This document shows positions 9,440 to 31,503 of a stretch of 50,168 nt of DNA, piece by piece (positions within the stretch are counted from its first letter, which is position 1; each line of letters begins with the position of its first letter). The stretch lies in sequence record NC_049832.1. One strand, 5' to 3'. The translations under genes and the position numbers were made by a program. Below the pieces are notes generated by a model that saw only the letters and a program-made list of their open reading frames with translations, did no database searches and was not told the DNA's origin. Source of the DNA: Escherichia phage vB_EcoS-DELF2.

Positions 9440-9458
9440 TTTTAGCAATTCGTGCTAT
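9440..9458 (-). promoter_or_regulatory. palindrome motif copy (plus-strand text TTTTAGCAATTCGTGCTAT) with extended -10 TGaTATAGT 19 nt downstream
   Basis: Read directly; upstream gene stop codon TAG embedded in motif. Confidence 0.55.
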
Positions 9459-10027
9459 TTGTTGATGAACGTGGCGGCTATGTGCTGAGCGGTAATTTCT
9501 GGATTACCTTCGACAGAAAAGAAGTCACATTCCTGATAACCGTTGACCCCGATCATATCGTCAAGATAGATATAGTCGCGGCTGTCGTTGTCAAAGTTGC
9601 AACCGTTGCGATGGATTCGACATAGCTTTACCTGGATATCACCTTCAATCATCTGCAAGATCTCGTCTTTGAATCCACCGTCAGTAAATACCGAAAGGGA
9701 GTGAGACTCTTTCACCTTGCTTTCCGCTCGCATACCGAAGAAGCGATTTCCGAACTGCGGTTTGATGACCTCCTCGCTAATCCAGATCATAAACTGGCGC
9801 GGGCTTTTACCGTTCAGGATTGATGCTGGCTCTTCTTTATAGCGACGGTCCTCATACAAGAACATGAAATATTCGAAATTAGCCTCACCCAGGATTGCTC
9901 GAGCAATCTCAAACATTGGAGCTTTGAAGCTGCGTAGCGCTACATGATCGTAAGTGTCAGCCAGGATGCATCCGATAGTGTCTTTTCCTGCGCCCGGCGC
10001 GCCGTTTAAAATGATAGCTGTTTTCAT
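9455..10027 (-). CDS. P-loop nucleotide kinase (adenylate-kinase-like GAPGAGKDT)
   Basis: N-terminal P-loop NGAPGAGKDT. Confidence 0.55.
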   Translation of the reverse strand: MKTAIILNGAPGAGKDTIGCILADTYDHVALRSFKAPMFEIARAILGEANFEYFMFLYEDRRYKEEPASILNGKSPRQFMIWISEEVIKPQFGNRFFGMRAESKVKESHSLSVFTDGGFKDEILQMIEGDIQVKLCRIHRNGCNFDNDSRDYIYLDDMIGVNGYQECDFFSVEGNPEITAQHIAATFINK

Positions 10028-10135
10028 GTCAGTATCTCCCTAAAAATAATTTTGCCACATTGATGATGGTGTGATTGATGATTAACAGGATGATAACCGT
10101 TAACACCGGATGTGCTGCAATAAATTCGTACAGGT

Positions 10136-10669
10136 TCATTCATCTACCCCGTGAGATTTTAAATGATCGTGGACTTTATCGCCATAGTCAACTACAGCGT
10201 AAGTGGTTATTCCAAGCGACCGGAATAATGGAATAATTTGCGGTGAGTCATCCCAGGCCGCCAGGATATTCTCAATACCGATCGCGCGCACCGCCTCTTC
10301 TTTCATCACCGTGTCTTTGCGGTTGTCGGTATGCGGTCGCATAATCAGGTAATCATATCGAGCACCGTGATGCTTAAGCCATAACTCATATGCGTAACGA
10401 ACCTCATCGCTTCGCCCGGTTAAAATGATCACATGATGACCAGCGGCAAACATAGAGTTCATCACTTCAATCGTACTCTTGATTGGGTTATCAAATATTG
10501 CCGCTCGGTTAAACTCAGACCAGCTTTCAGTTAAGTGCAAATCCTTTGTCGGTAGCAGGTGAAGTAGACCAGATCCATCGCTAAGTGTTCCGTCAAAGTC
10601 AAAGATTGCTACGCGGCGAGTGCCGAGAAACAGGCTGATTGTCTTGCCCCAAATGGTAATTTTATCCAT
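10136..10669 (-). CDS. HAD-superfamily phosphatase
   Basis: HAD motif I FDFDGTL near N-terminus; adjacent to the kinase. Confidence 0.55.
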   Translation of the reverse strand: MDKITIWGKTISLFLGTRRVAIFDFDGTLSDGSGLLHLLPTKDLHLTESWSEFNRAAIFDNPIKSTIEVMNSMFAAGHHVIILTGRSDEVRYAYELWLKHHGARYDYLIMRPHTDNRKDTVMKEEAVRAIGIENILAAWDDSPQIIPLFRSLGITTYAVVDYGDKVHDHLKSHGVDE

Positions 10670-10734
10670 GATTTATTCCTCTGATTGGTTGCTTAACTCA
10701 ACGAAGGGCATTCTATCAAATACCCTTGAGCAAG

Positions 10735-10753
10735 TTTTAGCAATTCGTGCTAT
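10735..10753 (-). promoter_or_regulatory. palindrome motif copy with TGaTAGAAT -10, then CAACCAATCAGAGGA leader
   Basis: Read directly; 19-nt spacing to -10. Confidence 0.55.
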
Positions 10754-11199
10754 TACCAGCAACTGATCTCATAGTTGGCCCAGTCATCAAAGCTACCCTG
10801 ACTGAAGTCGCCGCCGTAGTTTTCCATAAGTTCATCGATCAGGAAGTAGCAGGATTCGCCGTTACGATAGAAGTATGAATCTGCAACGCTGCGCGCCCAA
10901 TGTCCGGCATCTTTCTTGCTCATCTTCCAGTACTTCATTGCAATCTTCTTGAATGCACGCACGACGCGCTTGCGGATCTTAATATGCTTATACACCGCGT
11001 TGCATCCATAGGCCATATATTCGTTATTGCCAAGATTCTGCATAATGTAAGGATTTACTTCTTTTGACGTAATCATCAGATCGCCATTGACGCAACGCGA
11101 ATCATGAATACTTGCTGTCATGTAGTGACCTTTGAACATTCCAATGCCGTGCAGGGTGTATTCATCGTTAGGCGCTTCAATGCAGATTAAGTGTTTCAT
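10753..11199 (-). CDS. hypothetical protein
   Basis: GAGGA RBS before internal ATG at 11199; track start 11241 sits too close to the motif. Confidence 0.4.
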   Translation of the reverse strand: MKHLICIEAPNDEYTLHGIGMFKGHYMTASIHDSRCVNGDLMITSKEVNPYIMQNLGNNEYMAYGCNAVYKHIKIRKRVVRAFKKIAMKYWKMSKKDAGHWARSVADSYFYRNGESCYFLIDELMENYGGDFSQGSFDDWANYEISCW

Positions 11200-11254
11200 T
11201 ATCGTTTCCTCGTTTGTTGGTGTAGGTGAATCATAGCGCATTCCCCTTGATAGG

Positions 11255-11273
11255 TTTTAGCAATTCGTGCTAT
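11255..11273 (-). promoter_or_regulatory. palindrome motif copy with TATGAT -10
   Basis: Motif encodes C-terminus NSTNC-stop of ORF 11257..11475. Confidence 0.5.
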
Positions 11274-11475
11274 TCGTTTTAATAGTGATGCAAAAATAAT
11301 TTTTTAAGCACGTCACCACGCGCGCTGAATCGACTTGTGGGAGCCTTAAAATTTCGTGGACCAATTGCACTTCCGACACCTCAGATTTGTAGTAGTGTGC
11401 GATTCTGGAGGTATTTGGGCGCATTCCTTCCACTGCTTCACGTGCTGCATCTTCTGCTGTCATGATAGTAGCCAT
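11257..11475 (-). CDS. hypothetical protein
   Basis: 72 aa ORF ending inside motif. Confidence 0.35.
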   Translation of the reverse strand: MATIMTAEDAAREAVEGMRPNTSRIAHYYKSEVSEVQLVHEILRLPQVDSARVVTCLKNYFCITIKTNSTNC

Positions 11476-11632
11476 AAAACACCCTTAAGAGATAATGTCA
11501 GGACCAGGAGGCAGAATAGCAACTCCTGAAATGATGGAGGTTCGTTTTTCCAGTTCTTAAAGTCAGGCATAAAGCTATTCATATTCACCTCATAAAAATA
11601 GGGAACCGCTCAGGAACGATTCCCACTTTAAG

Positions 11633-12289
11633 TTAAACTACGAAAAACAGCACGATAAGAGAAATAAGAAGCACGGTAGCCATAGCCAGGTTTGCCAGAT
11701 TATCAATGTCCTTGTTGGTCAGCTTAGGCTTGACTTTACCATCAACTTCGATTGGCTTAACGCTGTGAATCTTACCCTGTTCGATGCGGAAAGCGCCCTT
11801 GATTCGACTGGTATTAAATTTCTGCTTCTTCTTGCCGAACGTTGCAAACTTAGTGCCGCCGCTATTCCATCGCAGACCTTCGCCATTATGCGTTACGGTA
11901 GCGATGCGGTGACGGCCCGTGTCGTCAGTAAGCGCTACAGTGTGCTTTGCGTGCTCAGTAGGAACGTCGTAGATTTTTCCAACAGTAAATTTTTTGGTGT
12001 TATCGCTGATACATTCAAATTTCATAAATTTTACCTCTTTATTATGCAGTTGATTGATTGCTTCGATTACGTCTCTAAATTTAACACCATCCACGATTCG
12101 ATGGAAGATATATTTTGAACTACCGCAATACGGCAGGAAAATTTCCTGGTACTCGTGACGACGGATGATGTTAACGTTGCTACCGTGCTCATCCACGACA
12201 ACGAAGCTGTCGTCATTGACGTGAGCGCCTTCGTAGATTTTTCCCCACTTAAAGCCCGATCCGTTACTTGATACGCATTCAAATTTCAC
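11633..12289 (-). CDS. repeat-domain protein with C-terminal transmembrane anchor
   Basis: Internal duplication (MKFECVSSNGSGFKWGKIYEG / MKFECISDNTKKFTVGKIYDV); hydrophobic C-terminus. Confidence 0.45.
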   Translation of the reverse strand: MKFECVSSNGSGFKWGKIYEGAHVNDDSFVVVDEHGSNVNIIRRHEYQEIFLPYCGSSKYIFHRIVDGVKFRDVIEAINQLHNKEVKFMKFECISDNTKKFTVGKIYDVPTEHAKHTVALTDDTGRHRIATVTHNGEGLRWNSGGTKFATFGKKKQKFNTSRIKGAFRIEQGKIHSVKPIEVDGKVKPKLTNKDIDNLANLAMATVLLISLIVLFFVV

Positions 12290-12573
12290 GGTCTAACCTT
12301 CCTATAAGGCTTGATTGATAACATCACGTATTGCGTGAAGTCGCATTCCTGATCGTCATACCCGCGATTGATGTATGGAGTCACGTCTGTAACATCGGAT
12401 ACCCTGGCGTGAACTTCCCACCCGGTAAACTCACCGCGATCGAACTCTCGTAGCTCCAAGATATCGCCAATCTGGAAGTTGCGGTCATTGATGCGGAACT
12501 CTGCCGTTTTGGTTCCGTTCATTACTCCAATGAAATGTACCGGGTTAATTTTTAACTTATGACTCTTGCTCAT
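12286..12573 (-). CDS. hypothetical protein
   Basis: ORF preceded by motif copy, TATAGT -10 and CAACCAATCAG leader. Confidence 0.45.
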   Translation of the reverse strand: MSKSHKLKINPVHFIGVMNGTKTAEFRINDRNFQIGDILELREFDRGEFTGWEVHARVSDVTDVTPYINRGYDDQECDFTQYVMLSIKPYRKVRP

Positions 12574-12636
12574 GATGCCTCACTGATTGGTTGCCATTCT
12601 TCAATAAGGCCACTATATCAAATGGACTTGCGGAAG

Positions 12637-12655
12637 GTTTAGCAATTCGTGCTAT
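12637..12655 (-). promoter_or_regulatory. palindrome motif copy with TGaTATAGT -10
   Basis: Read directly; approximate coordinates. Confidence 0.5.
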
Positions 12656-12800
12656 CGTTTAACGCACATAGTTTTTACTTCATATCCGAACGGCTTGTTT
12701 TCTGCAATCACCTCCCGAGCTTTTTCGCATGATTGCTGACTTTCCATGTATACGTGATCCGACCCGGTGCTCATCAAGATAATCAAGACCCATGCAGCCA

Positions 12801-13307
12801 TTATTTCACCTCATAGCGGACGAGCGTTCCGCGCTTAATGCTGATTTCACCTGATACCGTCTTGTTCTTGAAGCCGCCGTGATGCAATAGAATCGTGATG
12901 ATATCGTCGTGCACCTCAATAGTTTTTGGTGTCGCGGTAATCTCAATCCAAGAATCGCTGCTAATCTGGACACCTTTTAGCGTTGCGCTAAGTGGCACAT
13001 TCTCGATCTGAGTGCACTGTAGCGATGGCTTGATTTCTGGCTTTGCAGCTTTGAATATTGAGCCTTCAATCTTCCAGCTATCATACAAGCTGTAAGTATT
13101 CTGATTGTCGCTCATAATGTAGTAGTAGTCCTTATCTGGTGAATTTTCTTTATTCACTCCGTTATGTCTGGCAATAAACCACTCCAGCTTAAGCTGCGAT
13201 ACCTCATCAGTGGCCCACTTTCCTTTATCTTCACTGGTGAATGTAATTTCACCGCAACCCAGGCTGATAAATTTAATCGGGAATTTTACGTCTTCTAATT
13301 TTAACAT
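12801..13307 (-). CDS. hypothetical protein
   Basis: 168 aa ORF in early block. Confidence 0.45.
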   Translation of the reverse strand: MLKLEDVKFPIKFISLGCGEITFTSEDKGKWATDEVSQLKLEWFIARHNGVNKENSPDKDYYYIMSDNQNTYSLYDSWKIEGSIFKAAKPEIKPSLQCTQIENVPLSATLKGVQISSDSWIEITATPKTIEVHDDIITILLHHGGFKNKTVSGEISIKRGTLVRYEVK

Positions 13308-13362
13308 GATGCTTTCCTCTTAGTGGTTTATGTGGGGATTATACCAGTCAGGCCAAATCCCC

Positions 13363-13381
13363 TTTTAACAATTCGTGCTTA
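13363..13381 (-). promoter_or_regulatory. palindrome motif copy with perfect extended -10 TGgTATAAT
   Basis: Read directly; 19-nt spacing. Confidence 0.6.
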
Positions 13382-13867: not shown

Positions 13868-13923
13868 GCTATCGTCCTCGTTCGTTGTCGATGGGGTTAC
13901 TATATCGCAACCCATGAGCTGAG

Positions 13924-13942
13924 TTTTAACAAAAAGTGCTAT
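13924..13942 (-). promoter_or_regulatory. palindrome motif copy with TATAGT -10 and conserved leader TAACCCCATCGACAACGAA
   Basis: Read directly. Confidence 0.55.
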
Positions 13943-14130
13943 TCTTTAATTTCGAAGCAATCGGTGTCTTCGTCGAATATCCAGGGGTCGCCGTTATCAT
14001 CAAGTAATGAGATATTCCCGAAGCTGGTTAGCGATGCACTATAAGGCTTGTCAACGGTAAAGCACTCTTTCACCTCCTGGTCATCACTACCTTTGAATAC
14101 TGCAATCATTTGGTGCATAAAATCAGCCAT
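13939..14130 (-). CDS. hypothetical protein
   Basis: 63 aa ORF. Confidence 0.4.
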   Translation of the reverse strand: MADFMHQMIAVFKGSDDQEVKECFTVDKPYSASLTSFGNISLLDDNGDPWIFDEDTDCFEIKE

Positions 14131-14139
14131 TTTAACATC

Positions 14140-14880: not shown

Positions 14881-14943
14881 GGTGAATCCTCTGATTGGTA
14901 TCTCATTTCGATGGGGTAACTATAGCAAGATACCCCGATCCGG

Positions 14944-14962
14944 TTTTAACAATTCGTGCTAT
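14944..14962 (-). promoter_or_regulatory. palindrome motif copy with TGcTATAGT -10
   Basis: Read directly. Confidence 0.55.
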
Positions 14963-15626: not shown

Positions 15627-15682
15627 CTTCGCTTCCTCATTCGTTGTCGATGGGATAACTATACCAGGTTATCCCGATCCGG

Positions 15683-15701
15683 TTTTAACAAAAAGTGCTA
15701 T
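15683..15701 (-). promoter_or_regulatory. palindrome motif copy with TGgTATAGT -10
   Basis: Read directly. Confidence 0.55.
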
Positions 15702-15960: not shown

Positions 15961-16536
15961 TTACTTCTCCTCATCCAGTAAATGTGAGCGGAATTGCTCG
16001 ACCAGCTTATTGAGATCGGATACCGAGATATTGCTACCTTCAAAATCCCTCAAATCGATTCTGAACGCCTCAACCTTCGCATTGAACACGTCGGCTATGC
16101 TCTTTCGCTTCCTACCTCTCTTGCCATGTTTAGCTTCGCCTATGGCCTTCTCTGCTTCCTCGCCTTCGAGTTCGGTTATGAATATCGTCACCCCGTCAAC
16201 CTGATCGCGGTTGATTCGCACAGATACGGCCTTATTATGCACCTTGAGCATGTGGCGCTTGATGATATTGGACACATACGACGCGGTGAGTCGTTCGAGC
16301 AACCAGGCTGATCGAGATGTGTACTCGTTAACGACTGCCTCATCAATCTGGTCATCGTTAAGTTCCACGCCATGAGTAGCCTTTACAATCTCGGCCTGCT
16401 CATTGACGTACACTTCAACCATTTGCTTTCCGGTGATTGAGAACTCATTCCCTGATTGGTGGATTTCAATCGCCTTTCGAATATAGTCCGGCAGGTTGAG
16501 TTCAAATTCTGTCACTTCTTTAAGCTGAGTTTTCAC
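15961..16536 (-). CDS. hypothetical protein (first gene of leftward early block)
   Basis: 191 aa ORF adjacent to divergent intergenic region. Confidence 0.45.
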   Translation of the reverse strand: MKTQLKEVTEFELNLPDYIRKAIEIHQSGNEFSITGKQMVEVYVNEQAEIVKATHGVELNDDQIDEAVVNEYTSRSAWLLERLTASYVSNIIKRHMLKVHNKAVSVRINRDQVDGVTIFITELEGEEAEKAIGEAKHGKRGRKRKSIADVFNAKVEAFRIDLRDFEGSNISVSDLNKLVEQFRSHLLDEEK

Positions 16537-17230
16537 TTGTCTATACCTCGTTGTCTATGGGTGTAACTTTCAACTTCGAAAAACATGTTACAGCTACAAA
16601 GTCAGGAGCGTCAATGTCTATAGCTGCATTTTTTATTTTTGTAACCAGTGCAACCGATGCAACCGACTTTTTCTATAAAAGTAAGCACATCTATTTATGC
16701 GCGCGGAATGGTATGTTTTTTATACTATGCATCACGAAATATATGCCACCCTCAAAAAATGCGGTTGCACCTATTACGCCGATTACATACCAATATATAA
16801 TATAATAAATAAATAAATATATATTATCTATCTTATTATTATATATAGATATTTTATTATCTATAGGCCTATCGATTCTCGGGCCACTTTGTAACACCCC
16901 TGATGGTATACAACTATTACGACAATTACAACTACCGCATAGACGAATAGCACGTTTTGCTAAAAATGGAGATTACCACCAGGCGAACTGGGTAACACTA
17001 AATCCTCCCTCTCACAATCATTGCAATCTAAGCAACAAATCAACCGACTGTTGCACACCATGCAATAATCACGTTTCATCATTCGCAATCAATCACAATC
17101 AAAATTATTCCAACTATTCCAGCATTGATGTAATAATGAGCAATTATTGGAATAGCATTTTTTGCTAACGACTGGACCAGGTTGGCAGGGTATAGTTCTG
17201 GCCATCAACCAATCAGAAGAGGAAGCAGCA
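16537..17230. repeat. AT-rich divergent intergenic region with iteron-like repeats and two motif copies lacking or displaced from -10
   Basis: TTGTCTAT x2, TGTAAC/GTTACA, ATATTATCTATC, inverted TATCTAT/ATAGATA; motif copies at about 16947 and 17152. Confidence 0.5.
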
Positions 17231-17434: not shown

Positions 17435-17935
17435 GTGTATGGCAAGCCTGATTTCATTATGGCATTTCCTCCATGCACTGACCTGGCTGTTAGTGGCGCT
17501 GCTCACTTAGCAAGAAAGCGTGAGCGAGATCCGTTATTCCAGGAGAAGGCTGTTGCCACCGCCAGGATTGCCGCGAATATTGGCGACGCCCTGGGAGTGA
17601 CTTACATCATTGAGAATCCTGTGAGCGTCCTGTCATCTGCCTGGCGAAAACCGAATCACTCATTCAACCCCTGGGAGTATGGCGGCTATCTTCCTGAGAA
17701 TGACGCACACACCTGGTTCCCTATGTATATTGCGCCGCGCGATGCTTATCAGAAGAAAACTTGTCTTTGGACCTCGGACGACTTTGTCATGCCGGAGAGA
17801 AAACCTGTAAACCTGCCTGACGGGTACTCTGCGCAACACAGCAAGCTTGGCGGCAAGTCGGCAAAGACGAAGCTGATACGATCCCTGTCGCCGCGTGGAT
17901 TTTTCAAAGCGATCGCAAATAGCACTTTTTGTTAA
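17435..17935 (+). CDS. C5-cytosine DNA methyltransferase-like, C-terminal part (FPPC motif IV, ENP motif VI)
   Basis: Same frame as 17231..17416; catalytic Cys motif PPCTD; no target-recognition domain obvious. Confidence 0.45.
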   Translation: MYGKPDFIMAFPPCTDLAVSGAAHLARKRERDPLFQEKAVATARIAANIGDALGVTYIIENPVSVLSSAWRKPNHSFNPWEYGGYLPENDAHTWFPMYIAPRDAYQKKTCLWTSDDFVMPERKPVNLPDGYSAQHSKLGGKSAKTKLIRSLSPRGFFKAIANSTFC

Positions 17936-17937
17936 AA
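17919..17937 (+). promoter_or_regulatory. palindrome motif copy (ATAGCACTTTTTGTTAAAA) with TGgCATAAT -10 19 nt downstream
   Basis: Motif encodes the last residues NSTFC-stop of the methyltransferase ORF. Confidence 0.55.
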
Positions 17938-17995
17938 CTAGCTCGGTGCGATTTGGCATAATTACCTCATCGAAACGAGATTGAGGAAAAACAAA

Positions 17996-18382: not shown

Positions 18383-18401
18383 ATAGCACTTTTTGTTAAA
18401 C
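18383..18401 (+). promoter_or_regulatory. palindrome motif copy with TATAGT -10 and hairpin CCCCGA-N6-TCGGGG in spacer
   Basis: Read directly. Confidence 0.5.
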
Positions 18402-18457
18402 GCCCCGAAGTGAATCGGGGTATAGTGAACACATCAACCAATCAGGAGAATCACCAG

Positions 18458-19637: not shown

Positions 19638-19777
19638 TTTATGTTCACACCTTTTATACAGGCAAGTTTAATAGCGTAAAAAATGTTCGCGTTTACGATA
19701 GTCGCCAAAAAGCAATTATGCAGAAAGCAGTGCTAGGAGGCACAATCAAAGAGTGCAAAGTAATTTCTGAGTACTGA
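19634..19777 (+). CDS. hypothetical 47-aa protein (below ORF-track threshold)
   Basis: ATGA start/stop overlap with upstream gene; stop TGA merges into motif copy. Confidence 0.3.
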   Translation: MIYVHTFYTGKFNSVKNVRVYDSRQKAIMQKAVLGGTIKECKVISEY

Positions 19778-19795
19778 TAGCACAAACTGCTAAAG
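19777..19795 (+). promoter_or_regulatory. palindrome motif variant (ATAGCACAAACTGCTAAAG) with TATATT -10
   Basis: Read directly. Confidence 0.45.
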
Positions 19796-19854
19796 ACACA
19801 CACCAGGGAGTGAGGTATATTACTCCCATACCAAACGAAACAAAGGAATTAAAA

Positions 19855-20293: not shown

Positions 20294-20311
20294 ATAGCAC
20301 GATTTGTTAAT
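20294..20311 (+). promoter_or_regulatory. palindrome motif copy with TGaTAAAGT -10 and ACCAATCAGGAG leader
   Basis: Read directly. Confidence 0.5.
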
Positions 20312-20373
20312 ATTGCCGTAAGGTCATTTGATAAAGTGGCCTTATTCAAGATAACCAATCAGGAGCTAACGCC

Positions 20374-20793: not shown

Positions 20794-20811
20794 ATAGCAC
20801 TTTTTGCAAAA
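20794..20811 (+). promoter_or_regulatory. palindrome motif variant (ATAGCACTTTTTGCAAAA)
   Basis: Immediately after stop of 20374..20790; weak -10 TATCAT. Confidence 0.4.
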
Positions 20812-20866
20812 CGCGTGTACCATTGGCGGTGTATCATTCACACCGTCAACAAAGGAGTTTATTGTG

Positions 20867-24370: not shown

Positions 24371-24420
24371 TATAGCCTCTTTGTTTCGATGTGGTTACTA
24401 TGCCCGAATCCCTTCGGACG

Positions 24421-24440
24421 TTTTTATCAATTAGTGCGAT
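24421..24440 (-). promoter_or_regulatory. diverged palindrome motif (plus text TTTTTATCAATTAGTGCGAT) with CATAGT -10
   Basis: Same 19-nt spacing and AACCACATCGAAAC leader. Confidence 0.4.
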
Positions 24441-25582
24441 CCTGTCATTTCTGGACGATAGATGAAGCGACCTATTTCCCCAAACTGCTTATCGTAAACA
24501 ATTACAGCCGCCTGGCGATATGAGCGCCACCCTCCGCGTGCTGCGTATGCATCTTTCGCGCCTAACTGACCGTGCACTTCATCAATACCAAGCGAGTGCT
24601 CAGTGATTGTCTGGTGATGCCAGTGACCACTATGAGTATACACATACTTGCTCTCGCCGAAGTCTGATCGGAAATCTGCCGCCATTGCTGCAAGTCGCGT
24701 GTCTGCCTTTTTCATAGTGTGCCCGTGAGTGTATCCCAACAAGGTATTTCCCCAACGAGTCTTATGCAGAATCATAGGACTAACGTCAACGAATACTCGC
24801 GGCTCGTCTTCATAATATGCCGACATTGCAGCGCGTAGCCAAATCATCCCTGCCTGGTCGTGGTTCCCTTCGATAACCTGGACTTCGACTTCCTTGTGTT
24901 TCAGTAGCATTTTGTCGATAGCGCGACGAACAGATCTAATAGCTACATGCACCAATTTTGCATATCGTGAATCCTGATCCAGAACGTGACCACTTGCCGG
25001 GGTAACAGCATCAAGACCGTCCGAGTGAAGGAAGTCACCGCCGATTAAAAGAACGGCCTTCTCTGCGTTCGGAGCAATATCGATCGCGTAATTAAAGAAG
25101 TCGCTAAGCACTTTTTCCGCTACGTCGGTAGAGTAGTTCTCTCCACATTCATGCTTATGAGCAAGCGCGCCAATGTGAAGATCGAACACCGGGTATAGTG
25201 CCAGCTTGCCAATAGCGGTTGTAAGACCTTGCGATGTGAGTAGCTCAGTTGGCTTTGCTCGCGGCAAGTCTTCACAAAATGCAATGCGTGCAGCTTCCAT
25301 CATAGCTGCAATCTTCTCACGGTCCTGATCGGTCTTAACCCATCGCACGACCTCAGTCCCATCACCGCGAATCATTGTTGATGTGCCTTTTACCATGAAG
25401 CCTTCAGGAACGTTTTTAGCAACATGCTCATTGCCGTGAAAGTGGCCTTCTTTTGCCAATTTTGCGTGTCGAGCCTCAACAGTTCGAATATGCATACCGT
25501 ACTTTTCCGCGATCTCGCGAAGTGTAAGGCCGTTCATGCGCTCTTCGACAAGTTGCTCGGTAGTGATTTTAGCTTGTGACAT
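24431..25582 (-). CDS. metallophosphoesterase with N-terminal helix-turn-helix
   Basis: Calcineurin-like motifs GDFLHSD, GNHD, GHTHG, GHWHH; N-terminal HTH LTLREIAEKYGMHIRTVEARH. Confidence 0.7.
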   Translation of the reverse strand: MSQAKITTEQLVEERMNGLTLREIAEKYGMHIRTVEARHAKLAKEGHFHGNEHVAKNVPEGFMVKGTSTMIRGDGTEVVRWVKTDQDREKIAAMMEAARIAFCEDLPRAKPTELLTSQGLTTAIGKLALYPVFDLHIGALAHKHECGENYSTDVAEKVLSDFFNYAIDIAPNAEKAVLLIGGDFLHSDGLDAVTPASGHVLDQDSRYAKLVHVAIRSVRRAIDKMLLKHKEVEVQVIEGNHDQAGMIWLRAAMSAYYEDEPRVFVDVSPMILHKTRWGNTLLGYTHGHTMKKADTRLAAMAADFRSDFGESKYVYTHSGHWHHQTITEHSLGIDEVHGQLGAKDAYAARGGWRSYRQAAVIVYDKQFGEIGRFIYRPEMTGSH

Positions 25583-25660: not shown

Positions 25661-26062
25661 TCATGCCACAGCCTTCAACCAGAATCCTAGATCTGAAGAT
25701 TTAAACTCAACGAGTTTTCCTTCAACCTCAAGCATCATACTGTTTCGGCCAGGTGAGTAGTAACCTATATGCAACTCCTGCTCAATACCGATAGTGCAAA
25801 GCACGTTAACAAAGTCAGGTGGCAACCAGTCAGAGAAAGGAATTTGCTTAACCTGCTTTTTACCGATCCATATTTCCTGGTATTCGTCCGCATTAATATT
25901 TAAGCCGGGAAGACTTGCCGTTTTTTGTGGATTTTCTTTCTCGCTCAATTCTCTTTCCCTCTTCGCGGTAAAACTCAAGTGATGGAGTTGCTGGAACTCT
26001 ATGCATTTTTCTCGGCATATCTTCCATAAATGAAATCTTGCCGTTTGAGATAATGCTAACAT
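25661..26062 (-). CDS. hypothetical protein (true start probably internal TTG)
   Basis: C-terminal two-thirds protein-like; overlaps 25893..26165. Confidence 0.35.
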   Translation of the reverse strand: MLALSQTARFHLWKICREKCIEFQQLHHLSFTAKRERELSEKENPQKTASLPGLNINADEYQEIWIGKKQVKQIPFSDWLPPDFVNVLCTIGIEQELHIGYYSPGRNSMMLEVEGKLVEFKSSDLGFWLKAVA

Positions 26063-26165
26063 CCTTTATATCGAAATATTTTGCTATTAGTGCTATATCG
26101 TCTGAGATTCCGCACTCCTTCGCGTGCTCCCAAACCTCTCGTTTACCTTGTTTTTTTATCAGCAT
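25893..26165 (-). CDS. hypothetical protein
   Basis: 90 aa ORF with Lys/Arg/Glu-rich tail. Confidence 0.3.
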   Translation of the reverse strand: MLIKKQGKREVWEHAKECGISDDIALIAKYFDIKDVSIISNGKISFMEDMPRKMHRVPATPSLEFYREEGKRIERERKSTKNGKSSRLKY

Positions 26166-26352: not shown

Positions 26353-26409
26353 CTTCTGATTCCTCATTTCGTTTCTATGAAATAACTATACCCGACTTTC
26401 GCCGGGTAT

Positions 26410-26428
26410 TTTTAGCAATTAGTGCTGT
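26410..26428 (-). promoter_or_regulatory. palindrome motif variant with TATAGT -10 and hairpin in spacer
   Basis: Read directly. Confidence 0.5.
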
Positions 26429-27380: not shown

Positions 27381-27432
27381 TTTTATTCCTCTCGTTTTGG
27401 TGAGATAATAATGCCAGATTCCATCCCGGCAG

Positions 27433-27451
27433 TTTTAACAAAAAGTGCTAT
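27433..27451 (-). promoter_or_regulatory. palindrome motif copy with TGgCATTAT -10
   Basis: Read directly upstream of Dam gene. Confidence 0.55.
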
Positions 27452-27864
27452 TTCATTAATTCGTAAATTGCGACCTTGAATTGCTCAAATCCGTATGCGA
27501 CGGCAGGGAAGCCTCCACGCTCACGGACCTTTCGGAGAAATTCCCTTTGCTTGTCGCTGACTGGTGACGCCTTTCCTTTGCCTGATTTATTAACCCGCTT
27601 GAGTTCTATTGCTGCAAACGGGTATCGTGAGTTAACACCAATCAGGATAACGAAGTCTGACACGCCTTTAAGTAATCCGGCCTGCTCATCCCTGAGCGCC
27701 GATGTGATTGTTTTTTCACCTTCATTGACAGTGTGCCAAAATAGAAGGTGAGGAAAATTGTATTTCAGCCAGGATACACAATCCACCTGATGAGCGTCCT
27801 CCTTTCGAGTGTCGCTTGGATCTCTCTCGTAAAATTCTAAATAATCACCTTTGTCTGTAATCAT
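27448..27864 (-). CDS. VRR-NUC domain nuclease
   Basis: PD-(D/E)xK signature VSDFVIL...AAIELK...SDKQ. Confidence 0.55.
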   Translation of the reverse strand: MITDKGDYLEFYERDPSDTRKEDAHQVDCVSWLKYNFPHLLFWHTVNEGEKTITSALRDEQAGLLKGVSDFVILIGVNSRYPFAAIELKRVNKSGKGKASPVSDKQREFLRKVRERGGFPAVAYGFEQFKVAIYELMK

Positions 27865-29879
27865 TCCGGGATATCCTCCATACCAAAGTCTTTTCGTGAG
27901 ATAATATCTTCTTTCTTCTGGTTGCGACGATGAGTTACGCGCACCGGGTGAGCAATATGATGTGAGTATTGCAAAATCTTGATGGCGTTCTTCATTCCGA
28001 TAAAGTAGCGGCGCATTTTAGGATCTGATACGTGTGGCAATACACCTTTCGTTTTCCATAGCGTACCGCAAATCTTAGAGTCAGACTCGGGGAAGAATTT
28101 TTCATACGCCTTGAACTCATCACCATCGTCGTTAATCAGCGTGTATTTGTATATTATGCCTTTCTGGTTTTTGGTTAGCGTAACCTCAAAATTCTTTACT
28201 TCATACCAGTCATTCTTAGTGTACGCCTTACAGGATAGCTTCAGGTTAGGATCGACAAGCGAAACATCACAACAACGACAGACTCGGGCCACAACGTCAT
28301 TCTCTGCGCCGCACCCTTTAACAAGGATTTTTCCGGTTCGCTCGTCAACCTGGTCCTCACAAATCCGAGAAGTCCAGAAATGATCGCAACGTTCACCATC
28401 AATGACATTAACGCATCGTCGAGCATAGAAGCTATTTACGCAACCGCATTTCGGGCATGTTTTCGGATCTTTGCCGTTTTCAAAACGCTTCTGGAATTGC
28501 GCCTGCTCAAGTATCGGATCGAAATAAAGCTGACCCAGCTCATCCATCGTACCTGCGAAATCCCATACCAGATGGTCCTGCTTAACCATACCCTCAGCAA
28601 CCTGCCATGATTTAAGCAGTCGCATACCCCTGCCCAAAAGTTGAATCAACAGAGTGAGCGATCCTATCTTGCGGAGTATGACACTGAAATCCCAATTTGG
28701 AACGTTAACGCCAGTAGTGAGCGCCATTACCTGAAAGGTGTATTTAATTTTTCCGGCCCTTACGTCGTCCAGAATCTTCTTGCGCGCTTTGTTGTCTGTG
28801 TCGCCAGTAATAATTGCATAGGTGCTTCCCGGAGGAAGTGCTGCCGCTGCCTCTTTGCAGTGGCGCACACCAGCGCATGTAATCAGAACCGCGTTACGCT
28901 CTTCGGCCTTTTTGGCGACCATTTGCATAATTCGCTGAGTCAGGGATTCATCATGAAGGATCTCATCCTCCATCGCTTTCATGTCTTTCTCTGTAAAGTC
29001 CTGCACCCCGTCCTCGCTCGACGCCTTAAACTTATCCAGATCGTAGTGAACTCCGTCCGTTGATCCGAATATAGTCGGAACGACAGATCCGAACTCAATC
29101 AGATAGTTTGTGTCGATATCAGTTACTCGCTCACGCCAGAATCCCAATGCTTTCGGATTCTCTACCAGAATAGGAACTACGCCACGAAATTCAGATCCAG
29201 TCATGCCAAATATTCTGAGATCGTGACCGTGAACCTTTTTACAGCGCCGCATCATTTCCATGATTACGATCGTGTATTGACTGCGCTTAGTTCCAAGCAA
29301 AGGTTTTCCATCATTACCAATCAGTGGAATATCTCCGTCCATGATGATTTTCCCTTTCTCGCCCCTCATCTGTTCCATCGTTTCCTTGCCTTCGATGGCT
29401 TGCGCAAGGTCTTCCCAATCTACCTGATGACATTCATCAATACCGATTACGTGCGGGACGAAATCAGCAAGCTCATTGTCGAGGCCATTTGCAACCGTAC
29501 CCTCAGAACCAACCACGATCGGGAAGTAGCAGGACTTAATTCCAAGCGATGCTGAGAAGATGGAGTTCGTTACCCCGAAGTTGTCGATCTCTTCGCTATC
29601 CTGATCGACAATCTCACCCTGGCGAGCCAGGACAAGCATTTTTAAGCCCATTTTCTGACACTGCTTTGCAACCATAGCAAAAATGATGGTCTTGCCAGCA
29701 GACACTGACGCTTTAACGAAGAATGGGTGCTCATAATTTGACAAGCGCTTCGCGATCTCGGCGTAAGCAACAACCTGATACGGATAAGGAACTACTTCAC
29801 CTACAGTGAATCGCTCCTGAGTTCGCTTTATGTAGTCCTCGCCAAGTAATGCAATCTGTTTTTTAATGTTCATTGTCAC
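27861..29879 (-). CDS. SF2 DNA helicase (DEAH box) with C-terminal Cys-rich zinc ribbon
   Basis: Walker A SVSAGKT, DEAH-like GIDECHQV, CPKCGC...C..C cluster. Confidence 0.8.
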   Translation of the reverse strand: MTMNIKKQIALLGEDYIKRTQERFTVGEVVPYPYQVVAYAEIAKRLSNYEHPFFVKASVSAGKTIIFAMVAKQCQKMGLKMLVLARQGEIVDQDSEEIDNFGVTNSIFSASLGIKSCYFPIVVGSEGTVANGLDNELADFVPHVIGIDECHQVDWEDLAQAIEGKETMEQMRGEKGKIIMDGDIPLIGNDGKPLLGTKRSQYTIVIMEMMRRCKKVHGHDLRIFGMTGSEFRGVVPILVENPKALGFWRERVTDIDTNYLIEFGSVVPTIFGSTDGVHYDLDKFKASSEDGVQDFTEKDMKAMEDEILHDESLTQRIMQMVAKKAEERNAVLITCAGVRHCKEAAAALPPGSTYAIITGDTDNKARKKILDDVRAGKIKYTFQVMALTTGVNVPNWDFSVILRKIGSLTLLIQLLGRGMRLLKSWQVAEGMVKQDHLVWDFAGTMDELGQLYFDPILEQAQFQKRFENGKDPKTCPKCGCVNSFYARRCVNVIDGERCDHFWTSRICEDQVDERTGKILVKGCGAENDVVARVCRCCDVSLVDPNLKLSCKAYTKNDWYEVKNFEVTLTKNQKGIIYKYTLINDDGDEFKAYEKFFPESDSKICGTLWKTKGVLPHVSDPKMRRYFIGMKNAIKILQYSHHIAHPVRVTHRRNQKKEDIISRKDFGMEDIPE

Positions 29880-29940
29880 GGCTATTAATCCTTTTAATCG
29901 TTGTAACGTTTACGCTATAATACACGGCATAAAGTAAACT

Positions 29941-29960
29941 TTTTTAGCAAAAAGTGCTAT
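29941..29960 (-). promoter_or_regulatory. palindrome motif copy upstream of helicase; overlaps RBS region of divergent plus gene
   Basis: TATTAT -10 about 18 nt downstream on minus strand. Confidence 0.45.
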
Positions 29961-29972
29961 AGGAGAATCAAG

Positions 29973-30425
29973 ATGAGTATTCAACGTATCGCAGAATCAA
30001 CTGGTGAAATCGATAAACGTCACATCAATGGTAACAACGGAACACGGCGCGGTAAAGATAAAAAGCCTCGACAGCGTTGCGGGTTCTATATTCATAAAGA
30101 AGAAACACGCGCCGGACTGCGAGCGCGACTTGATGCTCTTATCGAATATTACGGCGGCCCTGCGGCCTGCGCAAAGGCTCTAAAAGTTAGCAATCAGACG
30201 GTGCAAGGCTGGAAAGATCGAAATATGATTTCATGGCAAGGCGCTGAAGCTGCGCATCGCGCTTACCGCCGACAGGGGTGTAAAGGATTTCGTGCCGCAT
30301 GGTTGCGATTCGACCTGAAGTTTGACGGTAACGGCAAGTGCCTTGAGAAGCGATGCAAGAACAAGAAATTTATGCGCGTCGTGAAGAAGGAAGATATCGG
30401 AACTACCAATAGCATTTTTAGTTAA
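29973..30425 (+). CDS. putative DNA-binding protein (Cro/YdaS-like HTH)
   Basis: HTH-like segment GGPAACAKALKVSNQTVQGWKD; basic; last residues encoded by a motif copy. Confidence 0.4.
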   Translation: MSIQRIAESTGEIDKRHINGNNGTRRGKDKKPRQRCGFYIHKEETRAGLRARLDALIEYYGGPAACAKALKVSNQTVQGWKDRNMISWQGAEAAHRAYRRQGCKGFRAAWLRFDLKFDGNGKCLEKRCKNKKFMRVVKKEDIGTTNSIFS

Positions 30426-30427
30426 AA
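30409..30427 (+). promoter_or_regulatory. palindrome motif copy followed by terminator instead of -10
   Basis: Read directly. Confidence 0.4.
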
Positions 30428-30433
30428 CAAACG

Positions 30434-30474
30434 ACGCGTAGCGGGTTAACATCCTTCTACGCGTTTTTTATTTT
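30434..30474 (+). terminator. intrinsic terminator ACGCGTAG...CTACGCGT plus TTTTTTATTTT
   Basis: 8-bp perfect stem, long U-tract. Confidence 0.7.
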
Positions 30475-30486
30475 GGAGATCTGGAA

Positions 30487-31422
30487 GTGAACGAAGAATT
30501 TATGATGTTTCAGAAAGAGGACGTTTTGCCGTACATGAAGGGGTTATGGCGCGAGGCTTTCCAATCAATCTGCGGATTGCCGAATGATGTTTTTAATAAG
30601 AAGCACCAACCTTGCCCTAACTGCGGAGGTAAAGACCGCTTTCGCTGGACTGATAACCTGAACACTCCGGGCGACGGAGGTGCGATCTGCAACTCATGCG
30701 GTAACGACTCCGGGATCGGGTGGCTAATGAAATTAACTGGTATGCCGTATAGCGAATGCATAAATATCCTGGGAAGATTTCTCGGAAAAGTTCCGCAGGA
30801 ATACATCGTCAAGGCAAACAAGAAAGCGCGCCGAACTCCGGTATCTGGTGTCAATGTCATGATGGCAGATCATGAATCGGTGATGAAAGTCATGGAGCGT
30901 ACAGAGAAGCGCGTAAACACACCTCTAAGCATGTTTGAATCTCTACCTACTGAATCATTCGACGTTGGCGTAAAACGTCGCGAGGATGGCGGCGAGAGCG
31001 TATTTCACACCATACCATGTCAACTTGTACACGAGGACGGTCTTGATGATGAGTTTTGTAATATTTTGATTATTGATGATGAGGGTAGGGAGTCATTTTA
31101 CGCTAAGAAATACACAAGTTGCTCGGTTGCCGTGACTGGTAAAACAGAAAAAGCGATCTACTTATGCCTTAATTGGATTGATGCTCAGCATATTGCATTT
31201 CACACAAAGCAAGAGGTATGGGCCTGCTTCACTCCTGAGAATCTGGAAATGGTTGCATACAGATATAAAGGGGATCGAGAAGTAAGGGTTGCGTGCGAAC
31301 CTTCAGACAAGGAGACTTTATACATGGCAGACGACCGACAATTAAAAATAATCATCCCAAATCCTGGAGGATACCGCTCAGGAATGCAAGCCAAGTTATT
31401 CTCAGCAAGTGACCTACTCTAA
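30487..31422 (+). CDS. putative DNA primase (zinc-binding)
   Basis: CPNCGG...CNSCGN zinc-finger pair near N-terminus; GGAG RBS before GTG 30487. Confidence 0.45.
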   Translation: MNEEFMMFQKEDVLPYMKGLWREAFQSICGLPNDVFNKKHQPCPNCGGKDRFRWTDNLNTPGDGGAICNSCGNDSGIGWLMKLTGMPYSECINILGRFLGKVPQEYIVKANKKARRTPVSGVNVMMADHESVMKVMERTEKRVNTPLSMFESLPTESFDVGVKRREDGGESVFHTIPCQLVHEDGLDDEFCNILIIDDEGRESFYAKKYTSCSVAVTGKTEKAIYLCLNWIDAQHIAFHTKQEVWACFTPENLEMVAYRYKGDREVRVACEPSDKETLYMADDRQLKIIIPNPGGYRSGMQAKLFSASDLL

Positions 31423-31444
31423 CCGCCTTCGGGCGGTTTTTTAT
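31421..31444 (+). terminator. intrinsic terminator ACCGCC-TTCG-GGCGGT plus T-run
   Basis: Immediately after primase stop. Confidence 0.7.
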
Positions 31445-31461
31445 TGTCCATTGCAAGTCTG

Positions 31462-31503
31462 ATAGCACAATGATAAAATCAGTGTTTAGCAATTCGTGCT
31501 ATT
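31462..31503. promoter_or_regulatory. inverted pair of palindrome motif copies upstream of tail fiber gene
   Basis: ATAGCACAATGATAAAAT and TTTAGCAATTCGTGCTAT face each other. Confidence 0.4.

Follow-up and report, generated by a model that had tools for sequence, protein, structure and literature searches.

The genome of Escherichia phage vB_EcoS-DELF2 (NC_049832.1), a T1-like Tunavirus analysed here as a window of 50,168 nucleotides, carries a recurrent motif that agrees with the asymmetric marbox consensus AYnGCACnnWnnRYYAAAY of its host in 18 of 19 positions. Since this marbox match is placed as in host class II promoters, host stress regulators are probably what the phage relies on to activate early and middle gene expression. 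On balance, the sequence favours the canonical copies being activator sites of class II MarA/SoxS/Rob-type promoters that are read by host regulators.

Re-derivation of the motif on the full window gave ATAGCAC-N3-TTG(C/T)TAAAA (19 bp) as the true repeat unit, with 10 copies free of mismatches, 18 with at most one, 24 with at most two and 27 with at most three. Second-order Markov simulations yielded 0.1 copies by chance at up to two mismatches and 2.2 at up to three, which bears out the original observation of more than 20 copies (24 against 0.1 expected). A copy was found at every coordinate given there, and additional ones lie beyond its range (903+, 7609-, 26078-, 34609-, 40888-, 43136- and 47075+). 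The formula proposed at the time, ATAGCAC-N5-TTGCTAAAA, has no match in the window even with three mismatches, and its "N5" is merely the gap separating the short inverted half-sites TAGCA and TGCTA. Nor does the supposed inverted repeat for a dimeric protein agree with the conservation, which is asymmetric and fits a marbox bound by a monomer with two helix-turn-helix (HTH) motifs instead. When 65 sites of five genera are pooled, base frequencies show GCAC, TG and AAA to be invariant and index 7, 8, 9 and 13, where the marbox is degenerate, to be variable; index 3 is always G, but the position mirroring it is C in 36 sites and T in 28, and C6 is invariant and T10 nearly so, yet the two are not complementary. 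"Palindrome" is a weak description of this motif.

The element had been regarded as an unexplained new code, but it was already published in 2024 for phage TLS as a 21-nt direct repeat, aaATAGCACnnnTTGnTAAAA, of open function, noted also in T1, Rtp and Rogue1 and discussed as a stoperator, enhancer site or UP element (PMC11447400). The TLS repeats are the same element, with the same subgroups (central TTT, GAA, AAA), the same orientation with transcription and the same median distance of 76 nt to the start codon in both phages. A fixed -10 distance and a marbox match are absent from that account (PMC11447400), and what is added here is the match to the asymmetric marbox in place of a symmetric operator.

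The box, A-T-A-GCAC-(G/T)WW-T-TG-(C/T)T-AAA-A-c, is 20 bp long and asymmetric, and occupies about -50 to -31 in the forward direction (Table 1). A -10-like hexamer was defined by A at position 2, T at position 6 and at least four of six matches to TATAAT. As originally noted, such a hexamer begins exactly 19 nt past the motif in 18 of the 24 copies, and no other offset occurs in more than two, so the spacing constraint stands. Individually inspected, 22 copies have a hexamer at a box-to-hexamer gap of 17-19 bp (18 bp in 19, 19 bp in two, 17 bp in one), all of sigma70 type with A2 and T6 invariant; the "often" noted upstream TG amounts to a full TGn in 11/22 and G at -14 in 20/22. These copies read AAAACN at the -35 position and lack a -35 hexamer, confirming the earlier observation, and a generic -35/-10 scan of the window returned 23 sites, fewer than the 28.2 in shuffles. 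The 19-nt spacers have no sequence in common among copies, but all keep one length, and they do so in seven genomes of different genera; spacer length is under selection. Downstream of the hexamer a conserved leader (CATCGA.. or ..AACCAATCAGGAG) is followed by the ribosome site. Stop codons of upstream genes, reported before as frequently embedded, fall within the motif at 13 of 20 copies; at six more, the stop is no further than 6 nt away. The earlier suggestion of an upstream promoter element fits a positive element that replaces the -35 before sigma70 -10 hexamers and is conserved family-wide.

Table 1. Copies of the box in the window and the -10-like hexamers behind them (gap, box to hexamer). 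In table order, all boxes from 9439..9458 to 34608..34627 except 30409..30428 show the class II layout.
Feature	Coordinates	Strand	Hexamer	Remarks
Box ATAGCACGAATTGCTAAAAC	9439..9458	-	TATAGT 9415-9420, gap 18 bp, TGn	1 mismatch to AYNGCACNNWNNRYYAAAYN; transcript predicted to begin near 9408; 76 nt between motif start and ATG
Box before polynucleotide kinase gene	10734..10753	-	TAGAAT 10710-10715, gap 18 bp, TGn	
Box	11254..11273	-	TATGAT 11230-11235, gap 18 bp	
Box	12636..12655	-	TATAGT 12612-12617, gap 18 bp, TGn	0 mismatches
Box variant TAAGCAC...	13362..13381	-	TATAAT 13338-13343, gap 18 bp	Upstream gene's TAA stop is the first three bases
Box	13923..13942	-	TATAGT 13899-13904, gap 18 bp	
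Box	14943..14962	-	TATAGT 14919-14924, gap 18 bp, TGn	
Box	15682..15701	-	TATAGT 15658-15663, gap 18 bp, TGn	
Diverged box	17152..17171	+	TATAGT 17191-17196, gap 19 bp	3 mismatches
Box	17919..17938	+	CATAAT 17957-17962, gap 18 bp, TGn	
Box	18383..18402	+	TATAGT 18421-18426	0 mismatches; hairpin within spacer
Box	19777..19796	+	TATATT 19816-19821, gap 19 bp	
Box	20294..20313	+	TAAAGT 20332-20337, TGn	
Box before 543-aa helicase gene	20794..20813	+	TATCAT 20832-20837	
Box variant ATCGCAC..TTGATAAAA	24421..24440	-	CATAGT 24397-24402	TAA stop of upstream gene in box centre
Diverged box within coding region	26077..26096	-	TAGCAT 26053-26058, TGn	T1 counterpart 40308+
Box	26409..26428	-	TATAGT 26385-26390	Hairpin within spacer
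Box before Dam methylase gene	27432..27451	-	CATTAT 27408-27413, TGn	
Box for 672-aa helicase gene	29941..29960	-	TATTAT 29917-29922	Double position: also inverted in leader DNA of Cro-like regulator gene
Diverged box, end of regulator gene, before primase gene	30409..30428	+	TAACAT 30447-30452, gap 18 bp	Hexamer nested in terminator hairpin GACGCGTAG..CTACGCGT, then TTTTTT
Box ACGGCACAAATAGCTAAACA before Erf gene	34608..34627	-	TATAAT 34585-34590, gap 17 bp	0 mismatches to classical consensus; 17-bp variant also in KP36
Box ATGGCAC..., antisense to tail genes	47075..47094	+	TACGAT 47113-47118, TGn	Faces late-strand TAAAAT promoter and sits in its leader DNA; T1 counterpart 18832-
Orphan box ATAGCACGTTTTGCTAAAAA	16947..16966	+	None -10-like at gap 17-19	T1 copy 102-; 16/20 identical to E. 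coli mar promoter box
Inverted box before major capsid gene	903..922	+	No T6 hexamer at expected gap	Late strand: ends 15 nt before CATAAT, itself within terminator loop; conserved in T1, TLS (DR7), Vc1, Motto, Snitter
Box just before small-terminase ribosome site	7608..7627	-	No -10 after	0 mismatches; T1 8362+
Inverted box in leader DNA of tail-fibre gene (31523+)	31483..31502	-	No own -10	0 mismatches; directly follows TGATAAAAT on + strand; T1 34902+
Box-like copy between TATAAT promoter and ATG of 1149-aa tail gene	40887..40906	-		Order terminator, TATAAT, box, ATG; layout matched in T1, Snitter, JLA23
Diverged copy before terminator and TG-TAGAAT promoter	43135..43154	-		3 mismatches

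With the marbox consensus strings taken from PMC3709825 and PMC12052159, the AYNGCACNNWNNRYYAAAY consensus has 22 matches in the window at up to one mismatch against 1.05 expected, a number reached by none of 100 shuffles, and the ChIP-seq-derived gcannwwntgnnaaa has 21 exact matches against 0.86 expected. Class II promoters feature a forward box that overlaps the -35 and clusters near -41, no recognisable -35 and a canonical -10 (PMC12052159); the marbox-like box of the phage is likewise forward and overlaps the -35. Measured in MG1655, micF has the box ACAGCACTGAATGTCAAAAC, 18 bp, TAGAAT and then 7 nt to the annotated 5' end, and at sodA and nfo a forward box lies 18 bp ahead of a -10-like hexamer, the same gap as in 19 of the 22 phage copies. 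The phage promoters thus share the 20-bp asymmetric forward box, -35 overlap, 18-bp gap, missing -35 and canonical -10 with the enterobacterial class II MarA/SoxS/Rob(/RamA) promoters (micF, sodA, nfo, fumC, lpxC P2), and activator dependence of the same kind would be the best explanation. Unlike the host promoters, the phage boxes belong to a virulent phage, whose genome has about 20 of them in 50 kb, deviate from the consensus by 0-1 mismatch rather than the 1-3 of micF, sodA and nfo, and are densely packed, with upstream stop codons and RNA hairpins interleaved. The phage box is also tighter than the host consensus, index 2 A and index 10 T being nearly invariant, a constraint that could reflect top-affinity selection, the TAG stop contained in the box or another reader; the final consensus position (Y) is A in 44/65 phage sites. 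In the literature, no marbox link was found for these phage repeats.

A monomer of a host AraC/XylS-family regulator would bind the box, with one HTH inserted into GCAC and the other into the (Y)TAAA element. In the structure of Rob with RNA polymerase at micF, one HTH reads the GCAC site and the CAAA site overlaps the -35. By contacting the alpha C-terminal domain and sigma70 region 4, the regulator would make up for the absent -35, and transcription by host RNA polymerase would then start about 7 nt past the hexamer. Early and middle genes, among them small ORFs and the genes for kinases, methylases, helicases, primase and recombination, would be expressed from some 20 promoters of this kind. 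Rob, whose expression is constitutive and high-level (PMC9178005), is always present and would be the likeliest reader at the start of infection; MarA or SoxS could serve once induced, and RamA in Klebsiella. A tblastn search with MarA and Rob against eight Drexlerviridae genomes returned no homologue (best E = 0.34), and Pfam scans of 20 early/middle proteins found no AraC-type HTH, so host Rob, MarA or SoxS (RamA in Klebsiella) would be the best explanation.

Conservation among relatives bears on the reader in both directions. Core proteins are only 45-60% identical across Tunavirus, Webervirus, Rogunavirus, Jhansiroadvirus, Tempevirinae and an Erwinia phage, whereas the box hardly varies among them, which fits a reader outside phage control. 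Motto and Vc1 possess the same boxes, and their hosts are reported as Pseudomonas aeruginosa and Vibrio cholerae, which counts against MarA/SoxS/Rob; P. aeruginosa is not known to possess MarA or SoxS. In unstressed cells Rob is thought to be largely inactive and MarA/SoxS are low, and T1-like phages thrive in ordinary broth, which likewise speaks against host regulators; G at -14 may give basal activity. A Keio single-knockout screen with a T1-like phage found no transcription factor, as expected if the three paralogues Rob, MarA and SoxS are redundant, and equally compatible with no host factor being needed.

It is less probable, though to be taken seriously, that a phage-encoded protein reads the box as activator or repressor, the marbox likeness being convergent or coincidental. 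The candidates are the Cro-like regulator (29973-30425) and a 383-aa protein (24431-25582) with an N-terminal sigma-region-4-like HTH. The regulator, earlier taken for the obvious reader, is encoded by a core gene with 823 phage records and has a Cro/N15-Cro-like fold, and the half-sites TAGCA/TGCTA lie 10 bp apart, centre to centre, although box conservation is asymmetric, unlike a dimer site. Two boxes flank its gene, a layout that resembles autoregulation and recurs in all seven relatives examined; the box in its own leader lies 12 nt before the ATG, at about +14 to +32 of the regulator transcript, because an opposite-strand TATAAT overlaps the box. The regulator is nevertheless disfavoured because the Motto/Vc1 clade, with an identical box, has a strongly different recognition helix (QTVQGW vs VTVRNAY). 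The 383-aa protein is also core and its recognition helix (R33, V35, E36, R38) is invariant, but its gene is itself downstream of box promoters and the HTH match is below the Pfam threshold. It is, moreover, very unlikely that 12 positions of a host consensus would be matched by chance in the right orientation and at exactly the host spacing.

Direct reading by host RNA polymerase, through a UP-like element and a displaced TTGYTA "-35" without an activator, seems improbable. TTG(C/T)TA resembles TTGACA and has A-rich runs at its flanks, the element is invariant across hosts, and UP elements were among the TLS authors' proposals (PMC11447400). At 22 bp from the hexamer, however, TTGYTA is too distant for a sigma70 spacer, and there is no -10-like hexamer at 17 bp; nor is the invariant GCAC (-47 to -44) an A/T tract of the kind that alpha-CTD recognises. 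That the box belongs to Lrp, a global regulator of the host, is more doubtful still: the outer half-sites fit yAGhAwATTwTdCTr at 11-13 of 15 positions, but C6, which never varies, and G/T at index 7 conflict with the core of the Lrp consensus, where W and A are expected, the box exceeds 15 bp and is not symmetric, an lrp knockout was unflagged in the T1-like phage Keio screen, and the marbox fits much better.

Six more copies are without a -10, five of which coincide with, or are next to, likely late promoters. At 7608..7627 an upstream TGGTAAAAT extended -10 overlaps the start of the box, which therefore covers the predicted start site; the copy at 43135..43154 does not have class II spacing because its motif end is 30 nt from the hexamer. 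The copies at 16947 and 30409 had been suspected of lacking a -10 or of preceding a terminator: 16947 indeed has none and 30409 does lie in a real terminator, but TAACAT stands at the correct distance from the latter. Decay, as once suggested, does not describe such copies, since those at 903, 7609, 31484 and 40888 are kept in T1 on likely late promoters, the first and last of these four also in genomes less closely related. Could the box then be only an operator, a stoperator or repressor roadblock, or an RNA-level signal (a stem-loop or processing site in read-through transcripts)? Several copies are downstream of promoters or immediately before ribosome sites, the index 3 G pairs with the index 13 C or U if the half-sites fold, and stoperators were raised for TLS (PMC11447400). 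Such a signal, however, needs no fixed 18-bp distance to an A2/T6 and G-14 sigma70 hexamer, deviant copies show no compensatory changes, an Rfam search gave no family match, and genes behind terminators, such as primase at 30409, would be left promoterless without box promoters; a purely operator or RNA role is thus improbable too. Alongside activation by host regulators, a more tentative step is that the box-binding protein would hold back late promoters and the regulator gene promoter: given the five -10-less copies on late promoters and the inverted 29941-29960 box, the same protein may repress there. The late genes with the box on or just past a -35-less promoter are those for small terminase, capsid, tail fibre, a J-type tail protein and another tail protein, and boxes at these sites may occlude the promoters.

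An activator site before a good or extended -10 also replaces the -35 in T4 middle promoters (MotA box with AsiA), by which a phage times its gene expression, and in class II promoters of CRP, for example galP1. The MotA box, however, has its centre at -30 and a phage protein as its reader, and CRP sites are symmetric 22-mers, whereas the box described here matches the site of a host monomeric two-HTH activator. The promoter-early stem-loop (PeSL) cassettes of T4-type phages are repeated promoter-plus-hairpin modules among small early ORFs in a variable region and use ordinary sigma70 early promoters; here, in contrast, it is the activator box that is conserved, and no two hairpins have the same sequence.

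The repeated element of the vB_EcoS-DELF2 genome, here called the box, has the unit ATAGCAC-N3-TTG(C/T)TAAAA, counted from its first A as index 0. The original prediction was right in its overall observation, as a box copy occupies every position at which it had placed one, with the exception of its notation, since the formula with N5 has zero matches. At up to two mismatches, 24 copies occur in the window against 0.1 in Markov simulations. The fixed spacing it had described also holds: a downstream hexamer with the sigma70 signature (A at position 2 and T at position 6) begins exactly 19 nt past the motif in 18 of the 24 copies, and every other offset occurs at most twice. In the per-copy table, 22 copies have the hexamer, with G at -14 in 20 and a full TGn in 11, and the position of the -35, rightly said to be missing, reads AAAACN; a generic -35/-10 promoter scan of the region gave no enrichment. 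Pooling of 65 box sites from five genera left A2 and T6 of the hexamer invariant, G-14 present at 56 sites, and positions -2 and -1 of the box A-rich. Stop codons of upstream genes are embedded in the motif, as had been noticed, in 13 of 20 copies.

The repeat as such had been presented as an unexplained new code, which it is not, for it was already published for phage TLS. The 2024 re-annotation of TLS lists 21 occurrences of a 21-nt direct repeat, aaATAGCACnnnTTGnTAAAA, which runs in the direction of the genes and precedes start codons by ~76 nt; it notes similar repeats in T1, Rtp and Rogue1, leaves the function open between stoperator, enhancer-binding site and UP element, and reports only three sigma70-like promoters in the genome (PMC11447400). 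The window has the same consensus, co-orientation with genes and about 20 copies per genome, and its median distance from box to start codon is likewise 76 nt (range 70-84). No transcriptome or start-site map of Drexlerviridae was found in the literature.

The same element was found in T1, Klebsiella phage KP36, Rogunavirus phiJLA23, Erwinia phage Snitter, Vibrio phage Vc1 and Pseudomonas phage Motto, where the 19-nt offset is kept by 16/20, 13/14, 7/12 (plus three at 20 nt), 7/9, 9/15 and 14/18 copies, respectively. The spacers share no sequence, and therefore the fixed length has been selected and not inherited. Core proteins of the compared phages are only 45-60% identical, while the box barely changes. 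The identical box, of enterobacterial type and with unchanged spacing, is present in 15-18 copies in Motto and Vc1, whose reported hosts are Pseudomonas aeruginosa and Vibrio cholerae. A motif scan of viral contigs returned, among the matches listed, almost exclusively contigs whose length, 41-52 kb, suits T1-like phages, the remainder being a few shorter fragments and one of 55 kb; none of these listed matches provided an outgroup for co-variation analysis.

The proposal of an inverted-repeat site for a dimeric helix-turn-helix (HTH) protein failed on the pooled table, in which half-site conservation is not mirror-symmetric. Index 3 is always G, whereas its mirror, index 13, is C at 36 sites and T at 28, the invariant C6 and T10 are non-complementary, and the conserved flanks A0 and AAA have no mirrored counterparts. 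A palindrome centred near -42, with half-sites TAGCA-N5-TGCTA for a dimeric class II activator, was the first reading and was later dropped. Cruciform extrusion shortening the 22-bp spacer was also rejected, because the stems would take out 16-18 nt or the -10 itself. G, C, A and C at -47 to -44 and G at -38 are invariant, with no conservation upstream of -52 in the pooled table, and the A/T-rich tract from -59 to -38 devoid of G/C-specific positions that defines a UP element was not found. The sigma54 arrangement (TGGCAC-N5-TTGC, GG and GC 10 bp apart) does not apply either, as the AG-N8-GC of the box is 2 bp too short and lacks GG, and a sigma70-type -10 lies downstream. Look-alikes of sigma32 and sigma28 promoters were rejected on spacing from reading of the sequence.

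The asymmetric box corresponds to the marbox, the binding site of E. coli MarA, SoxS and Rob. Written as A-T-A-G-C-A-C-K-W-W-T-T-G-Y-T-A-A-A-a, it matches the mar/sox/rob consensus AYnGCACnnWnnRYYAAAY quoted in PMC3709825 position by position, and its variation falls where that consensus is degenerate. The 20-bp form AYnGCACnnWnnRYYAAAYn has 22 matches in the window at up to one mismatch (usually the last Y) against 1.05 expected, and the newer ChIP-seq-based definition gcannwwntgnnaaa (PMC12052159) has 21 exact matches against 0.86; all window matches to either consensus are copies of the motif. The phage boxes lie 0-1 mismatch from consensus, whereas the host's own boxes lie 1-3 away. The copy at 16947 is 16/20 identical to the box of the E. 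coli mar promoter itself, as read from MG1655.

The surroundings of the box also agree with class II promoters of the mar/sox/rob regulon, in which a forward box overlapping the -35 clusters near -41, with no recognisable -35 and a normal -10 (PMC12052159 among the sources); the structure of Rob with RNA polymerase at micF shows GCAC recognised by one HTH and the CAAA element overlapping the -35. All 22 hexamer-bearing phage copies are forward, with GCAC distal and AAA proximal, and the 20 copies examined have a ribosome site and start codon downstream on their own strand. The gap from box to hexamer is 18 bp in 19 of the 22, 19 bp in two and 17 bp in one, which places the box centre at about -40.5 for a predicted start 7 nt past the hexamer, and the -10 is canonical without a recognisable -35. 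In MG1655, the annotated 5' end of micF lies 7 nt past TAGAAT, which in turn is separated by 18 bp from the box ACAGCACTGAATGTCAAAAC; the GCAC-to-hexamer distance is 35 nt in micF and phage cassettes alike. The forward boxes of sodA and nfo stand 18 bp upstream of a -10-like hexamer; fumC has a perfect box and a less clear -10. The native fumC promoter, in the fumA-fumC intergenic region, has the layout of the phage cassette, a terminator hairpin with T-run of fumA followed directly by the perfect marbox. The repeat and the promoter class were each known; a link between them was not found in the literature covered, which excluded the T1 (2004) and Rtp (2006) genome papers: no source containing both 'marbox' and 'phage' concerned phage promoters, and the TLS, KanT1 and SU57 papers make no mention of MarA or Rob.

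From this agreement in sequence and geometry, we infer that the box promoters are probably bound and activated by host regulators of the MarA/SoxS/Rob type. A tblastn search of the window and seven related genomes yielded no MarA/Rob-like protein (best E = 0.34). In the host, Rob is made constitutively and abundantly (PMC9178005), and MarA and SoxS are inducible, with RamA in addition in Klebsiella (PMC12052159). In a screen of Keio single knockouts with a TLS-like phage, only envelope genes and two chaperones were found, an outcome predicted by redundancy among three paralogues. Rob, for its part, is considered mostly inactive without inducers. The same screen speaks against one non-essential factor acting alone, for example Lrp, which is considered an unlikely reader for its worse fit: half-sites of the Lrp consensus yAGhAwATTwTdCTr suit the box, but core positions 6-7 conflict (C and G/T against W and A). 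Further points weigh against host regulators, namely that the phage box tolerates less variation than the host consensus and that Motto and Vc1 were reported on Pseudomonas and Vibrio, where the boxes would be odd if P. aeruginosa and V. cholerae were without MarA/SoxS/Rob-type proteins.

An unrecognised reader encoded by the phage is considered unlikely, and the confidence left beyond these two explanations is spread over other rivals. Pfam scans of 20 early and middle proteins, which took in all products of 100 aa or more without known function from that region, revealed no AraC-type HTH. The product of 29973-30425, the only annotated regulator of this phage and a core gene found in 823 phage records, had been put forward as a possible binding protein. 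It carries a Cro-like HTH by sequence (Pfam/PHROG and homologue alignment), and its AlphaFold model (pLDDT 80) has a Cro-like fold with Xfaso-1 and N15 Cro as best Foldseek matches. This candidate was downgraded because the box stays constant where the recognition helix varies: boxes of the Motto/Vc1 clade are identical, yet the helix there is rewritten. The 383-aa core protein of 24431-25582 (-), annotated in records as a DNA repair exonuclease, combines a weak sigma-region-4/LuxR-like N-terminal HTH with a metallophosphoesterase domain. It was considered because the recognition helix of this HTH is invariant across genera, and is retained only as a form of the phage-encoded reader.

The HTH is not the most conserved part of the Cro-like regulator. 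That part is the basic, predicted-disordered N-terminal segment of residues 12-34 (IDKRxINGNNGTRRGKDKKPRKR), with 10 invariant residues, which suggests that it folds on a conserved partner.

Copies without a -10, which had been taken for decayed or differently used sites, are conserved, and most sit at likely late promoters. The design of the latter comprises an intrinsic terminator, a -35-less (C)TG-TA(A/T/G)AAT and mostly a marbox copy before the ribosome site; the exception is at 43135, with a diverged box upstream of the terminator. Since marboxes overlapping core promoters are known to repress (PMC12052159), one protein may activate the early and middle genes and hold back the late ones.

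Boxes, likely late promoters, hairpins and early-region features of the vB_EcoS-DELF2 genome
Feature	Position	Strand	Remarks
Box before terS	7608-7627		Extended -10 TGGTAAAAT overlaps box start, so the box covers the predicted start site
Box before J-type tail gene	40887-40906		Order terminator, TATAAT, box, ATG; same in T1, Snitter and JLA23
Inverted box before tail-fibre gene	31483-31502		Between TG-TAAAAT promoter and ribosome site
Inverted box before tape-measure chaperone gene	47075-47094		Between TG-TAAAAT promoter and ribosome site
Inverted box before capsid gene	903-922		Overlaps -35 region of CATAAT hexamer in terminator loop
Likely late promoter	7628-7660	-	
Likely late promoter	40907-40940	-	
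Likely late promoter	43095-43134	-	
Likely late promoter	47125-47165	-	
Likely late promoter	31430-31482	+	
Variable-sequence hairpin (example)	9400-9438	-	
Variable-sequence hairpin (example)	18403-18422	+	
Variable-sequence hairpin (example)	26390-26408	-	
Variable-sequence hairpin (example)	30434-30466	+	
Non-coding region between divergent early arms	16537-17150		600 bp; corresponds to T1 genome end and terminal repeat
Very AT-rich repetitive stretch	16790-16870		Inside the non-coding region
Canonical promoter TTGACG-18-TAACAT	16614-16585	-	Only good canonical one near the non-coding region; matches TLS P01
Orphan box	16947		Inside the non-coding region
First leftward early gene	15961-16536	-	191-aa product; behind the canonical promoter

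The Cro-like regulator has an opposite-strand box within its leader, 12 nt before the ATG, in all genomes compared; relative to its TATAAT promoter, this inverted box of the helicase lies at about +14 to +32. At 29917-29925, the helicase -10 TATTAT (minus) and the regulator -10 TATAAT (plus) overlap back to back in the same 7 bp, and the two promoters must therefore compete for polymerase. The overlap is kept in T1 and similar in KP36, Snitter and Motto. Another opposed pair was observed at 47075-47170 (+), where a box promoter with TACGAT and TGn runs against the tail-gene strand towards a bidirectional terminator, head-on to the late TAAAAT promoter ~40 nt away. It is kept in T1 (18832-) and could yield a short antisense RNA or transcriptional interference.

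It is tentatively proposed, as a scheme that is still rather doubtful in its entirety, that all Drexlerviridae wire their development to host MarA/SoxS/Rob. Some 20 early and middle promoters would be switched on through consensus class II boxes, and boxes over or just downstream of the -35-less late promoters and the promoter of the Cro-like regulator would keep those off, until replicated phage DNA, with ~25 high-affinity sites per copy, titrates the regulator as a switch. Acting as a decoy, the phage genome would then drain the host mar/sox/rob response, possibly with consequences for the regulation of efflux in the host, and bile, salicylate, oxidants or antibiotics would influence how efficiently infection proceeds.

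The promoters of T1-like phages have so far been undefined, and the TLS re-annotation left its repeats unexplained; reading these as marboxes offers a concrete and cheap test of transcription in the family and turns an open question into a direct experiment. If the reading is true, phage gene expression is tied to the antibiotic and oxidative-stress regulators of the host, with a bearing on phage-antibiotic combinations and on infection in the gut, which is rich in bile and in which Rob is active. Studies of activation by MarA/SoxS/Rob would then also gain a collection of ~20 near-consensus class II promoters that are natural and differ in their spacers.

T1-like phages are classic, ubiquitous coliphages, notorious as laboratory contaminants and candidates for therapy. 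The window is a T1-like siphophage of the genus Tunavirus, Drexlerviridae, collinear with IME18 and T1, and its early region is ~90% identical to Escherichia phages AV106 and IME18 and Shigella phage Sfin-1. Structural genes occupy roughly 1-7600 and 31500-50168, and between them lie two divergent arms of small early ORFs together with replication and recombination genes. The early arms are mosaic, with box cassettes flanking exchangeable small ORFs. For the product of the first leftward early gene, a role as immediate-early factor was weighed and dropped; even T1 and IME18 have no homologue. Rfam and tRNA scans gave no matches.

The 40 nt 3' of the box are far more prone to folding than shuffled sequence, with a mean z of -2.66 and 63% of sites below -2; random 40-mers drawn from the window give 0.03. 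Folding is stronger on the sense strand than on the antisense (z -2.66 vs -1.30; Wilcoxon p = 2e-8), and G-U accounts for 78 of 587 predicted pairs. Stem sequences differ from copy to copy, and between the window and T1 their changes preserve pairing via wobble intermediates, as at 20794. The hairpins lie between box and start site, some confined to the spacer and adjoining the U-rich -10 as small terminators would, others spanning the -10. Most simply, they are read as the 3'-terminal RNA hairpins of upstream transcripts, nested within the next promoter, where they would be squeezed into its only free positions; as the promoter fires inside the hairpin, its own transcript would be without the 5' arm. 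Nesting is clearest at 30409, where the loop of a true terminator contains TAACAT. Two leader types recur downstream of the hexamers, CATCGA(C)AACGA..GAGGA and ..CAACCAATCAGGAG, for instance at 9383-9414 (-) and 18427-18457 (+); both begin at the predicted start site and also precede some late genes (47054-47074).
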